DNA of 64,000 nucleotides. It comes from Octopus vulgaris. Taxonomy: Eukaryota. Below, piece after piece: positions 21,401 through 36,061 of the stretch; the first letter of the stretch is position 1, and each line of letters begins with the position of its first letter. The position numbers were made by a program, and so were the translations under genes. A model generated the notes under the pieces. It did not search any database, was not told where the DNA came from, and saw only the letters and a program-made list of their open reading frames with translations. The stretch spans positions 1,364,001-1,428,000 of the forward strand of contig OX597828.1 in the NCBI GenBank assembly GCA_951406725.2, given 5' to 3'.

Positions 21401-22430
21401 CTCGGAGTCTGGTTTGGTCCGGATCTCCAAATGGAAAAGAACTGGGTCGAGATAACTAGTAGAGTGGCTAGTCACACCAAGCAATAGGCCAAGAGGAAGT
21501 TATCTGTAAAAGGTTGGACTGAGGTATCGAATGCGTATATCGCATCCGTCATCTATTACCGTCTGACCGTCGTGCGTTTTCCGGAACCTATGCGTTTCAT
21601 AGACGACGGTGAACAGGTGTGGTCGCCGTTTGTGAGGTGCGCTTTCTCGCAACTTGTCTCTTTGACCGAACTGCAGTCGTGGATAAAACAGAAACCGAGG
21701 CTGGGTGAATGGCACCGCGAGTACCGCCTTGCTCTCGAACAACTCTGTAATGTCCAAACATTTCAGACCTGTGGGCTGATGTCGAACGGCTGCTGTCATG
21801 TGTGGGACGAATTCGGTTGTCGGCCGAGTCTATTGTGAATATTACTCCGCCACCCTCCTTTAACTGGGAAGGGAAGGTAGTTTCTATTGTACTAGTGGCT
21901 AGGGTAAAAGAATGTGTGTGGTGGACTCGTGCGAAAGGTTTAGAGAGTAACACTTTCCTCTCTGGCCAATCGCTCATCAACTTTTTCAAGTACCACTTGA
22001 AAAGGAAGGTGAGAATAGAGAGGAAAGCTTTGTCTCTTTAAAGTTTCAATAAAAGGTGGGTGAATGTAGCAAAGATGGTGAATGACATAACCACTTTGAG
22101 CATAATCCTGTAAATTCAAGAGAAAGAGAGAGAGAGAGAGAGAGAGAGAGAGAGAGAGAGAGAGAGAGAGCGCTTTGCTCTCATGTGTTCTTTCCCTGCC
22201 TGAGGTTACTGTGGTCTTTTTCGTAGGCTTTTCTTTCCACGGATAAACCTAATCTGTATTAAATTTTTACTTCCCCTTCTGGGAACTCTGTTATAAACGG
22301 AACATTATTATTTCGCTGTTTACATGTCCCAAACGCTTTCGATCCCTTCTGAAAAAGAAAAGTTCTACAGTGTATTGTTCCCTCTGTATTCGGTCCTGCG
22401 TGCCTAATAAAGAAATCTGTCTGCCTGTCA
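18460..22430 (+). mobile_element. Tx1-clade LINE copy A (degenerate, 5'-truncated, interrupted by a Penelope-like end)
   Basis: ORF1 C-terminal domain, APE endonuclease (from 19336), RT (YADD near 21195), conserved 3'UTR, AATAAA, then (ATCT)n. Confidence 0.85.
18942..18979 (+). ncRNA. Minimal type I hammerhead ribozyme
   Basis: CAGA-CTGATGA-AGG TAACTAC CCT-GAAA-CTAG-TC-TCTG. Core is intact, cleavage triplet is GUC, stem III is palindromic. Flanks resemble the repeat at 54885-55345. Confidence 0.75.
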
Positions 22431-22432
22431 TT

Positions 22433-22728
22433 CTATCTATCTATCTATCTATCTATCTATCTATCTATCTATCTATCTATCTATCTATCTATCTATCTAT
22501 TTATCTATCTATCTATCTATCTATCTATCTATCTATCTATCTATCTATCTATCTATCTATCTATCTATCTATCTATCTATCTATCTATCTATCTATCTAT
22601 CTATCTATCTATCTATCTATCTATCTATCTATCTATCTATCTATCTATCTATCTATCTATCTATCTATCTATCTATCTATCTATCTATCTATATATCTAT
22701 CTATCTATCTATCTACCTATCTATCTAT
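22433..22728 (+). repeat. (ATCT)n microsatellite, ~74 units
   Basis: Directly visible, between Tx1 copies A and B. Confidence 0.97.
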
Positions 22729-33000: not shown

Positions 33001-36000
33001 AATTTAAAATAGTCAGCTACACAGATCACAAATTTGTTACGTGTACGCTCGACTTAGATAAAACACATAGGCAGGGTCCCGGTTACTGGAAACTGAACAC
33101 GTCGCTGTTAGCGCGACAGGTTTACAGGAATCGGATTAGCGAGTTAATTAAGAGGGCGCTGACGGGAGCGGTCGTTAACAACCGCTGGTGGTACGCCCTG
33201 AAAATGGCAATAAAATCGGAATCAATTAGGTTTAGCAAGGAATTAGCGATAGAACGAAATAGAGTAGAGGGAGACTTGGCTAAGAAACTAGAAGAGGCAC
33301 TTACCACTGGCAGCGCAACCAACGTGCTGGCTGCGAGGATGGCCCTCGTCCAACACCTCAACGCCAAGCACGAAGGTTGCGTCGTCAGAGCTAAAATGTG
33401 TGCCTTAAGGAAGGAAGGGATCGAAGCTGCGCGAGAGGCCCGGGTAGCGGAGGCGCAGCGTGACAACAGAGCTACCATTCGGTCTCTAATAGATCAACAG
33501 GGATGCAGTTTACTCGAACCCGAAAGGATGTGTGAGGCCTTTCAACAGCACTTTGCTCGACTGTTTGGTGCGAGTAGTGGGTCGGAACACGGGATGGATT
33601 TCAGTGCCTACCTGACCGACCTGCCGCGGCTCTCGGCAAGAGAAGCGGAGTGTTGTGAAAGTCCCATCACAGCCGCTGACGTGTGGGATGCGATGGCGGG
33701 CTGCGCGAGGGATAAGTCGCCTGGATTGGATGGTTTACCCTACGAGCTGTATTGTCGAATGCCAGACTTGTTTGGCGACCTCTTGGCATCAGTCTACTGC
33801 AACTGGCAACAAAACGGGAGAATCCCCGGTTTCGTGAGCCGAGGTGCAGTAACGTTGCTGAAGAAAGACCCAAACAAGGGGAATTTTATAGATAATTTCA
33901 GGCCCATCACTCTGCTCAACACAGATTTGAAAATTTTGGCCAAAGTAATTGCCGAGAGGTTGGCGCTTGTCATTGGTAAACTGGTCGACAGGGTGCAAAC
34001 ATGCGCCGTGCCGGGCAGAACCATACATGACAACCTCCATCTGATGCGCTACATTGTGGACAGGGTAGTTAAGGATCCTGGCATGGGTGGGGCGCTGATA
34101 AATTTGGATAGGGTCGACCATCGGAACTTGGCGGCCGTCCTCAGGGCGGCTGGCTTCGGTCCCGTCTTCCGCGGTTGGATCGCTGCCTTGTATAGCGGCA
34201 TCCGATCGGTGATTCGGGTGAACGGTCACCTGTCGAAACCGTTTGACATCACGCGTTCGGTCCGTCAGGGGTGTCCCCTGTCGGCGCTTCTGTATGTATT
34301 GACTCTCGAGCCGCTACTGCGGAAGCTGGCGACACTGAGGGGCATCCCACGGGAACTGGGTTGCGGGACGAGCGTGTCGGCATATGCGGACGATGTCACC
34401 GTCATAGTGTCGAGCGACAAACACATCAAGATGATTGGCGAGACACTAAGAAAATACGAAACGGTGACGGGAGCAAAGATTAACCCGGAAAAGTCAGTGG
34501 GCTTGCTACTCGGCACCTGGAGAAGCAAGCCCATGCCGTCCGACTGCGGCTCAGTAGTGGGACGCTGGACGGACGGACCGGTTAAAATGCTCGGGGTCTG
34601 GTTCAGTCCGGACCTCCAAATGGATAAGAACTGCGACGAGATCACGAGTAGAGTGGTCGGTCTCAGCCAAACATGGGCCGAGAGAAAGCTGTCTCTAAAA
34701 GGCCGGGCGGAGGTGGCGAACGCGTACATCGCATCCGTCATCGATTACCGCCTGACCGTCGTACCTTGTCCCGACGCCACCATCACCAAACTGGAACGCA
34801 TACTCTTCCGCTTCCTGTGGAAGGGTGGCGTTCCGATGGTGAGGAAATCCATTTGCTGTCAACATCCGTTGAATGGAGGACTGGGCATGCCGTGGTTGAT
34901 GATGCGCAGGCATGCGCTGAGACTGCGACATCTCTGGAAATTCATCGACGACGGTGAACAGGTGTGGGCGCCGTTTGTGAGGCGCGACTTCCCGCAGCTC
35001 GTCTCACTGACCGAACTGCAAACGTGGATCAAAAAGAGACCGAAACTGGGCGATTGGCACCGAGAGTGTCGCAAAGCTCTACAGCAGCTCTGCCGACCGG
35101 GGTCAAACTTGTGCAACTTACAAACGACTAAAGCGTTCTATAGAGGACTAGTGGAGGGGAGGTTCGACGACACACTCGGGGCAAACCTGGGCGTCGACGA
35201 AGAATTCCTAACTCGCCTGTTCAGGACGACGTTTGGGCTGGGGCCTATGGATAACTTCCAGAAATCCCTGGCTTGGCAGTGCTATCGAGACGCACTACCT
35301 GTTCGAGAGAAGAGCTACAGACACGGTTCGAAAACCATCACCGGATCGACCTGCCCGAGATGCGGTCAGAGCGACGAAACCGTTCTGCACGCACTCGTGC
35401 AGTGTCCAGATATTTCAGAGCTGTGGTCCTTCGTCGAACAGCTGTTGTCACGTGTAGGTCGGGCTAGCCTATCGGCCGAGTCTATCATGAATATTGTTCC
35501 ACCACCTTCCTTTAAACGGGAAGGGAAAACGGTTTTCGTTACGCTGATGGCTATGGCGAAAGAATGTGTGTGGTGGACGCGTTTGAAAGGACTGCAAACA
35601 AACACCTTCCTCTCTGGTCAGTCTCTCGTCAACTTTTTCAAGTACCACTCGAAAAGGAGGATGAGAATAGAGAGGAAGGCTTTGTCGAACGAATGTTTTA
35701 ATAAAAAGTGGGTAAAAGTGGCAAAAATGGTCAGTATGAAAGACGACACTATTTTAAGCATAAATCTGTAACCAAAAGAGACAACGAGAAGTAAGGCGAC
35801 TTACTCATGTGTTCTTTTTCGAATTGTCTGAGGTGACCTTGGTCTTTTTTGTAGGTTTTTCTTTCCAAGGCTACACCTAAACTGTGAACCTTATATATAT
35901 ATATATATTGCTTTTTTATACACCACACAACCCACAGATCCCTATTGATCAAACGTTTTTTTTTTGTGCCCCACCCATCCCACCTCGAAAAGAAAAAATT

Positions 36001-36061
36001 CTAAATTGTATTTCGTCCATTTTTATTCTGTGTTTAGCCCTGTGTGGCTACAATAAAAAGT
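30033..36061 (+). mobile_element. Tx1-clade LINE copy D (full-length, few lesions)
   Basis: ORF1 from 30229 (CYKCGSPEHLIAKC) to 32283 with breaks. ORF2 32341-35771 with one frameshift near 32900 and APE, RT (YADD) and CCHC domains. Conserved 3'UTR, AATAAA, (ATCT)n. Confidence 0.93.

Follow-up and report, generated by a model that had tools for sequence, protein, structure and literature searches.

Architecture of the locus

The window analysed here is a stretch of 64,000 nucleotides of the Octopus vulgaris genome (assembly GCA_951406725.2, contig OX597828.1, positions 1,364,001 to 1,428,000), and the subject of this work is an RNA structure predicted in the 3' untranslated regions (3' UTRs) of four copies of a long interspersed nuclear element (LINE) that it contains. 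The four copies, A to D, lie head to tail on the + strand at 18.5-36.3 kb of the window, with (ATCT)n arrays in between; all coordinates below are those of the window and all features listed are on the + strand. Judging from the comparison of copies and related families across the genome, a long-range pseudoknot in these 3' UTRs is very probably real and conserved.

Element A (18466-22414, 5' end approximate) is an old degraded copy, recognised by blastn against the bodies of C and D with 66-87% identity in pieces. Its 3' flank, an array of 74 ATCT units (22432-22728), is also the 5' flank of element B (22729-23978), which is truncated at the 5' end and retains the C-terminus (zf-RVT) of the second open reading frame (ORF2). 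An array of 45 units (23979-24157) fills the interval between B and C, another of 28 units (29922-30032) the interval between C and D, and an interrupted array of about 61 units (36062-36303) follows D. Elements C (24150-29921) and D (30030-36061) are both full-length with frameshifts; each has a CCHC knuckle in ORF1, of the form CX2CX4HX4C, followed by endonuclease, reverse transcriptase (RT) and zf-RVT domains, and the Pfam matches of ORF2 are Exo_endo_phos, RVT_1 and zf-RVT.

The closest named match is a protein of Argonauta hians (59% over the C-terminal region), and for the homolog P0013 the nearest solved sequence is the L1 ORF2 protein (ORF2p), with an E-value of about 1e-68, as compared with 1e-16 for R2. 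From the architecture of ORF1 and ORF2 and from the target preference, the elements are probably of Tx1 type (L1 group); the tree of ORF2 relatives has long branches and holds no named Tx1 reference, none having been found among the protein matches. Two relatives in metagenomes are flanked by U2-like sequence (L174) and by (TC)n (L178); the former flank we take to be like U2 small nuclear RNA, which would make that element Keno-like. In the octopus repeat annotation L1-Tx1 is placed among the recently active LINEs, the sole mention of Tx1 in the part available (PMC13282606); 'TX1' in PMC4176376 is, in the part available, the name of a mutant and is irrelevant to Tx1 elements.

The 3' UTR module in copies A to D

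The same order of elements was found in all four 3' UTRs: the 5' strand of a first stem (S1a), an 8-nt U-rich loop (loop 1), the 5' strand of a second stem (S2a, GUAGG(C/U)UUUUCUU), one nucleotide and the 3' strand of the first stem (S1b), then a linker and an A-rich 3' strand of the second stem (S2) with a bulged U. This layout had been described in an earlier note on the same DNA, with coordinates that are correct to within a few bases and a linker put at about 110-270 nt; the measured lengths span 110-269 nt (A 110, B 269, C 131, D 117). Elements that the note did not include are a hairpin in the linker with a CCU(U/A)UU loop, the hinge UUGUCCCCUCU, a terminal GCC/GGC hairpin and the word AAUAAA. 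The module begins about 30-100 nt past the ORF2 stop codon, and AAUAAA follows the terminal stem in most families.

In A the 5' half (22204-22250) comprises an outer GGUU (22204-22207), S1a (22209-22214), loop 1 (22215-22222), S2a (22223-22235) and S1b (22237-22242). It is followed by a degenerate linker hairpin (22270-22285), whose family form, CUCCC-CCUUUU-GGGAA, is F-like (family F is described below), by the S2 3' strand AAAAGAAAAGUUCUAC (22353-22368; duplex -14.3 kcal/mol) and by the hinge, a degenerate terminal hairpin (22393-22404) and AAUAAA (22406-22411), together at 22375-22411. The 5' half of B (23609-23642) has S1a, with a private G, at 23609-23614, loop 1 at 23615-23622, S2a at 23623-23635 and S1b at 23637-23642; its linker (hairpins at 23697-23878) contains both GAUC-CCUAUU-GAUC (23697-23710) and GAUC-CCUUUU-GAUC (23865-23878), and the distal part (23912-23972) holds the S2 3' strand (23912-23927; duplex -15.6 kcal/mol), the hinge, the terminal hairpin (23954-23965) and AAUAAA (23967). 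A second possible partner of S2a, GAAAACCUAC, lies directly after the linker hairpin in family B (23879-23890 in the window, and loci such as L005; -12.6 kcal/mol) and is absent from family E.

Copy C has its 5' half at 29684-29730, with the outer GGUU, S1a (29689-29694), loop 1 UCUUUUCU (29695-29702), S2a (29703-29715) and S1b (29717-29722). The linker hairpin GAUC-CCUUUU-GAUC (29803-29816) and the S2 3' strand AAAAGAAAAGCUCUGC (29854-29869; duplex -16.5 kcal/mol) follow, and then the part that is common to the tail of a short interspersed nuclear element (SINE), namely the hinge (29878), the terminal hairpin (29896-29907) and AAUAAA (29909), at 29878-29914. The 5' half of D (35832-35878) has an outer GGUG, S1a CCUUGG (35837-35842), loop 1 (35843-35850), S2a (35851-35863) and S1b CCAAGG (35865-35870); the linker hairpin GAUC-CCUAUU-GAUC is at 35937-35950, and the distal part (35988-36057) comprises the S2 3' strand (35988-36004), the hinge, the terminal hairpin (36037-36048) and AAUAAA (36052). 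The S2 duplex of D, a mutated copy, amounts to -7.0 kcal/mol, versus -11.3 in the family copy L033. The CCU(U/A)UU hairpin, conserved with an exchangeable stem, occurs once or twice per element in families A-F, and a partner for its loop was not found.

Conservation and covariation in the genome

Copies of the module are abundant: exact matches to the 28-nt 5' half number 6,092 across the 2.8-Gb genome, versus none for a reversed control. Majority letters were derived from 132 copies (33 of family E, 32 of D, 30 of C, 16 of A, 13 of B, 6 of A2 and 2 unassigned), and between families they reveal true double changes in S1 (G-C to U-A in D), in the outer stem (U-A to G-C in D) and in S2 (C-G to U-A in D and A2). 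One S2 column has C-G in A, B, C and E, U-A in D and A2, and G-C in F.

This comparison also corrects the stem 1 covariation on which the earlier note had relied. The changes of family D, in S1 and in the outer stem, stand; CUGUGG in A, CCGGGG in B and CCACGA in C turned out to be private mutations, as did UUCUAA in D, the family majorities being CCGUGG/CCACGG and UUCUAC. The sequence that had been given for the S2 3' strand, AAGAAAAGCUCUAC, holds for B and E, but C has ...CUCUGC and A ...GUUCUAC at its end.

In an alignment of 15 copies, 94.9% of 450 cells are paired, versus 39-52% in controls with a slid register, and 4 of 30 pairs change on both sides, which 8 of 500 shuffles reached; these counts are inflated by kinship and the structure was derived from the same sequences. 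Family D stands one column off in the A-tract of alignment A5, and this counts against the structure in the pairing test.

Sister lineages with other sequences

Protein searches of the genome yielded four further lineages, F, G, H and I, with 49-69% identity in the ORF2 C-terminus to the (ATCT)n families; 280 ORF2 ends were located, of which 243 were clustered and 37 were dropped because they had no recognised tail. In the (ATCT)n families A-E, S2 is GUAGGCUUUUCUU/AAGAAAAGC-U-CUAC. Family F, which has (ATT)n at its 3' end, has a CUUUU loop and the S2 AGGGUUUU/AAAACCCU. Family G adjoins a SINE, with S1 GGAUGG/CCGUCC and S2 GGGUG/CACCC, and family H ends at (TC)n, with S1 AUGUGG/CCGCGU and S2 UGGGGUC/GACCCCA. 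Family I lacks a flanking repeat; its UGGGGUC is displayed by a GCUCG/CGAGC hairpin, and the partner of UGGGGUC is as in H and lies inside a possible hairpin. Both halves are intact in 52 of 56 clustered copies of F, 19 of 23 of G, 21 of 29 of H and 9 of 11 of I (a few loci were counted twice).

Each of these lineages has the partner strand just 5' of an UUGUCCCC(U/C)CU-like hinge, a terminal hairpin of 3-4 bp and an AAUAAA-like word, so that the order of pseudoknot, hinge and terminal stem is kept in five lineages with different targets. The linker hairpin is built around the same CCU(U/A)UU loop with GAUC/GAUC in A-E and CUCCC/GGGAG in F, and A has both kinds. We consider the pseudoknot better supported than in the earlier note because the sister lineages retain its topology with different sequence.

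An automated scan for pairings between a hairpin loop and a downstream partner returned the homologous pair in 11 of 13 representatives, seven of them with p <= 0.033 (300 shuffles): 0.003 for B, E and H, 0.007 for C and I1, 0.023 for I2 and 0.033 for D.

The points that weigh against the pseudoknot are several. On their own A (0.07 and 0.18), G (0.11) and F (0.12) are not significant in the scan, and old representatives of G and H2 were not recovered. The partner window was set after inspection of the data, and SINE copies score -10 to -22 in the same scan with no consistent pair, so energy alone does not discriminate; because of these two facts the argument rests on the agreement in position and on the rewritten sequence rather than on energies. 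When copy C is folded without pseudoknots, S1 is found and S2 is missed, with z = -0.32, and the U-rich linkers compete for the A-tract, with -6.9 to -10.2 as compared with -7.0 to -16.5 for S2. Moreover the families are related, so that the compensatory changes amount to few independent events. Finally, a relative from another host, about 52% identical over the RT region, has no homologous knot.

Outside the octopus genome, no related loci were found in viral contigs, nor in the metagenome scan with alignment A3; the metagenome scan with P0002 returned 80 distant loci, and among the 28 that were inspected no homologous knot was seen by eye where the 3' end was present. In three copies of one relative in a genome contig we found the UUGUCCCC word, no homologous knot and one candidate loop-partner pairing of 6 bp. 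Since no homologous knot was seen in related loci elsewhere, its conservation is shown within this genome only. The three copies in that genome contig (L366-L368) are tandem, full-length and of a eukaryotic Tx1-like LINE; the contig is assigned to a bacterial metagenome-assembled genome, which was probably contaminated with host DNA.

Two observations on the families themselves may be added. Family F occurs as head-to-tail, near-identical full-length copies with a period of about 5.87 kb and 5-6 ATT units between them (L091-L120, L321-L350; G000:C47, C50, C4:93.80-93.83 Mb), many with an open ORF2 of 1,145 aa. The same lineage includes the (TC)n-flanked H, with a Kibi-like target, and the repeat-free I (L251-L280, L301-L314).

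A possible triple helix in the (ATCT)n branch

In families A-E loop 1 reads UCUUUU(C/U)(C/U) and can be aligned in parallel with A-G-A-A-A-A-G of the second stem. Its UCUUUU is invariant across the five families, as compared with 19 of 44 fourfold sites (p about 0.006, the sites being assumed independent). The majority sequences have UGG/CCA G-C pairs and AAAAG; at the junction the Watson strand carries 2 extra nt, and three A are spare. The seventh triple would be C*G-C in C and E, U*G-C in A and B, and U*A-U in D; the extra loop U that the earlier note had seen in A and B is in reality a U instead of C at position 7, the loop having 8 nt in all four copies. Concerning the change of a triple in D from C*G-C to U*A-U, the second form is possible, but D has one A too many (six A versus five U), and the register is ambiguous at the changed triple.

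Several results count against the triplex. The lower C*G-C triple never covaries: it is invariant, and a search of the whole genome for a subfamily in which it is changed gave 3 isolated copies with a double change. The seventh triple is not strict either: C at loop position 7 occurs with U in the stem in 69 of the 6,092 matches, and of 12 such loci examined 9 have G as the partner (wobble), 1 has an altered partner, and in 2 no partner was found.

Four triples are possible in family F and none in G, H or I; only the (ATCT)n branch, and in part the (ATT)n branch, shows the U/A-rich triplex pattern. The case for it consists of invariance and of one concerted change, and it would resemble the element for nuclear expression (ENE) and MALAT1 as much as telomerase RNA. 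We regard it as somewhat probable that the triplex forms in A-E. It is the form that one branch gives to a knot shared by more lineages, and the tree gives no direction of change between the knot types. Of the triplex pseudoknot module that had first been claimed, the pseudoknot gained support from the sister lineages, and the triple helix is plausible, in the (ATCT)n branch only.

Targets and insertion junctions

The (ATCT)n repeats behave as targets. Among 105 young copies 22 true 5' junctions could be defined, and 19 of these have at least 3 ATCT in the 40 nt upstream, versus a window background of 0.7%. At the other end, 91 of the 105 young copies have at least 4 ATCT in the first 40 nt past the end. 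One locus (L002) sits in a target of a single unit, duplicated as TTATCTCTT, and has no array. The insertions of family G share one site, in the tRNA-like head of an abundant SINE; in 5 of 5 full-length copies (L369-L373) about 15 bp of the target are duplicated and no bases are added, and the SINE stands directly at all 23 of 23 3' ends; family I has no repeat in 11 of 11. Against a pure target reading, one copy (L132) has a long 3' array and none at the 5' side, a 5' array was seen in only 1 of 8 old copies, and in many cases what flanks the 5' side is the 3' array of the upstream element, which leaves the maker of the arrays ambiguous. Slippage by one or two units may occur. Targeting of microsatellites has been described for the Tx1 elements Kibi and Koshi (PMC4494074).

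Function of the module

The function that we favour, tentatively and at somewhat less than an even chance, is that pseudoknot, hinge and stem form a cis module through which ORF2p recruits its own RNA and places it for target-primed reverse transcription. Of the 142 copies that have the A-tract, 140 continue through the terminal hairpin, the other two continue through the hinge, and none ends at the tract. Copies run past hinge and stem; therefore reverse transcription starts downstream, and the triplex is not a blunt end of the MALAT1 type on the RNA that is copied. In A-clade R2 elements the pseudoknot, hinge and stem of the 3' UTR are a protein-binding surface, and compensatory changes rescue insertion (PMC12180492). 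Because this is the closest functional precedent, the knot is taken as a likely part of the ORF2p template module.

According to this proposal the long-range pseudoknot, whose folding in the cell is inferred, would form just upstream of the conserved hinge and the small terminal stem. In the (ATCT)n branch the 8-nt loop would lie in the major groove of a stem of 13-14 bp, forming in order one U*A-U, one C*G-C and four further U*A-U triples, with a seventh that varies, and the three spare A would be free for A-minor contacts on the UGG/CCA pairs, holding the knot closed over a loop of 110-270 nt. Hinge and stem would be the minimal signal, with the knot raising affinity or cis preference; the endonuclease would nick an existing (ATCT)n, and AUCU from read-through in the RNA would anneal to the nicked strand.

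On the other side of the balance stands a second tRNA-like SINE, which shares its last 45-65 nt (hinge, stem and AAUAAA) with the LINEs and has no homologous knot. Shared tails of LINEs and SINEs usually mark a recognised signal (PMC3747384). If the LINEs mobilise this SINE, which is inferred from the tail only, the comparison suggests that the knot would be dispensable in trans. The knot of R2, moreover, is small, 68 nt being enough, and part of its binding is by zinc fingers that these endonuclease-type elements may lack. The SINE itself, a candidate partner in a Tx1/SINE pair, was seen at L003:2494-2722 and in two window copies, often in tandem, and its middle appears to resemble the Nin domain.

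A possible but unlikely alternative, of which the earlier note had also thought, is that the knot serves the stability or abundance of the RNA: in the (ATCT)n branch a self-contained ENE-like triple helix would slow the 3' decay of a transcript of RNA polymerase (Pol) II, and ORF2p would read the hinge and the stem only. The G-C pairs beside U-rich strands, the 2 extra nt and the spare A form an ENE pattern. Interruption of the U tracts by G and C would fix the register of a genome-encoded A-tract, as in MALAT1/MENbeta, and the PAN ENE forms five U*A-U and three A-minor triples (PMC7583470). MALAT1 has a 2-nt bulge at the corresponding place (PMC11411715), and an ENE increases the stability and the mobility of Evade, a long terminal repeat (LTR) element (PMC12501189). 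The absence of the knot from the SINE, presumably a Pol III transcript, would also fit. However, the A-tract lies inside the element, with AAUAAA downstream of it and some 55-65 nt left to the end, and is neither a poly(A) tail nor a blunt end; none of the 142 copies ends there. Trimming down to the triplex would cost the RNA its hinge and stem. Families G, H and I keep the knot with G-C-rich stems of 5-7 bp and no triplex pattern, there is no upper ENE stem, GUAGG pairing with the 3' strand instead, and no Rfam match covers the module.

Less likely still is a role of the knot, through compaction of the UTR, at a different stage of mRNA biogenesis, for example in use of the AAUAAA close by, in export or in ribosome recycling after the ORF2 stop. 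The position of AAUAAA after the terminal stem and the short distance from the stop codon agree with this, and a Pol III SINE would not need the knot; but the SINE also has an AAUAAA-like word, suggesting that the word belongs to the protein-recognised tail.

It is very unlikely that no structure was selected and that we see inherited primary sequence, a protein-binding word or chance complementarity. U-rich and A-rich tracts do pair easily, and the z of copy C and the families that are not significant alone speak for it; however, G-C-rich partners stand at the same place in G, H and I, one column has three pair types, and double changes occur in S1, in the outer stem and in the stem of the linker hairpin. 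The suggestion of the earlier note that the knot places the RT on a short AUCU template, from which (ATCT)n would be added reiteratively in the manner of telomerase, is highly improbable: the topology with a U-rich loop as in telomerase RNA (PMC7583470), the 3' arrays of young copies, L132 and the rarity of 5' arrays in old copies would fit it, but repeats stand on both sides of young insertions, L002 has its duplication with no array, families G and I have the knot and no added repeats, the module holds no internal template, and microsatellite targeting is known for Kibi and Koshi (PMC4494074).

RNA recognition by L1-group elements other than mammalian L1 has been little studied. A defined and mutable 3' structure, young intact elements, natural compensatory variants and a SINE that lacks the knot make the question directly testable here. 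If the triplex forms, the natural RNA triple helices would gain a class whose A-tract is internal, and the families would offer a natural series for the rise of a triplex from a simple pseudoknot; no link to telomerase-type repeat synthesis is offered.

Other features of the window

Outside the four elements, the window contains 134 copies of a 15-bp unit, CAAAAGATGTACCTG, at 2858-4876, open for hundreds of codons in several frames, and short degenerate runs of CTAACC and TTAGGG at 7135-7270, inverted and about 75 nt apart. A further LINE fragment, with an RT domain and then an ORF with a PHD finger, lies at 8094-9545, and a PIF1 helicase fragment at 41211-41960 is possibly a Helitron remnant.

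Comparison with known systems

In human telomerase RNA stem 2 has a bulged U, as it has here, and loop 3 is short. Families A-E share with the P2b/P3 region of telomerase RNA an H-type pseudoknot pattern in which a U-rich loop 1 is expected to occupy the major groove of stem 2, itself A-rich (PMC7583470). Unlike telomerase RNA, the module has no template or boundary element, a long loop 3, no Rfam match and no sign of repeat addition. Rfam gave no matches at E up to 1 at window positions 21000-37000, and 23 weak ones across six loci, whose coordinates all fall outside the modules. An HDV-like ribozyme was ruled out on topology: set against the layout of the hepatitis delta virus (HDV) ribozyme, there is no P3/L3 between S2a and S1b.

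The (ATCT)n branch resembles ENE and MALAT1/MENbeta in its two U-rich strands on a G-C-topped stem, in its genome-encoded A-tract with G and C (PMC7583470; PMC11411715; PMC12501189) and in the 2 extra nt and three spare A at the lower junction. It differs from what these sources describe in that there is no upper stem and GUAGG, which connects the U strands, pairs with the sequence that follows the A-tract on its 3' side; unlike MALAT1, the tract is internal and no tRNA-like element follows. Reviews of triple helices place the triplexes of transposable elements in LTR elements and DNA transposons (PMC7583470; PMC13541005, in the parts available), and in the full-text literature, where subscription journals are thinly covered, we found no description of a pseudoknot or triplex in a Tx1 3' UTR.

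As in stringent LINE/SINE tails (the L2 stem-loop, the maize L1 tail), there is a small terminal stem-loop in a tail shared with a SINE (PMC3747384), but here an extra long-range knot, absent from the SINE, lies upstream. Among Tx1 elements, Kibi with (TC)n, Koshi with (TTC)n and the crocodilian (TTCC)n/(TTTC)n families have the same architecture and insert into short repeats or mobile elements (PMC4494074); the words 'secondary structure' and 'pseudoknot' do not occur in the text of that paper. The octopus elements instead go into (ATCT)n, (ATT)n, (TC)n or a SINE head.

The nearest functional counterpart is A-clade R2, likewise a target-specific non-LTR element, with a 3'-terminal pseudoknot, a conserved single-stranded hinge and a terminal stem, and with a fold that outlasts sequence divergence (PMC12180492). 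R2, however, has a compact module, the hinge GAAAAG, a restriction-like endonuclease and N-terminal zinc fingers (PMC12180492), whereas the octopus elements have a loop 3 of 110-270 nt with a conserved hairpin, their own hinge sequence, an endonuclease of APE type, AAUAAA and, in one branch, a triplex-type S2. It is conceivable, though we hold it with little confidence, that an L1-group element independently evolved an R2-like module of pseudoknot, hinge and stem, and that one branch turned a plain knot of 5-7 bp into a self-contained seven-triple helix with an ENE-type junction, a hybrid of telomerase pseudoknot and MALAT1 triplex read by a LINE RT. The families of one genome would then form a gradient, with the loop-loop pairing of I at one end, the full triplex of A-E at the other, and the short knots of G and H and the four-triple form of F in between.

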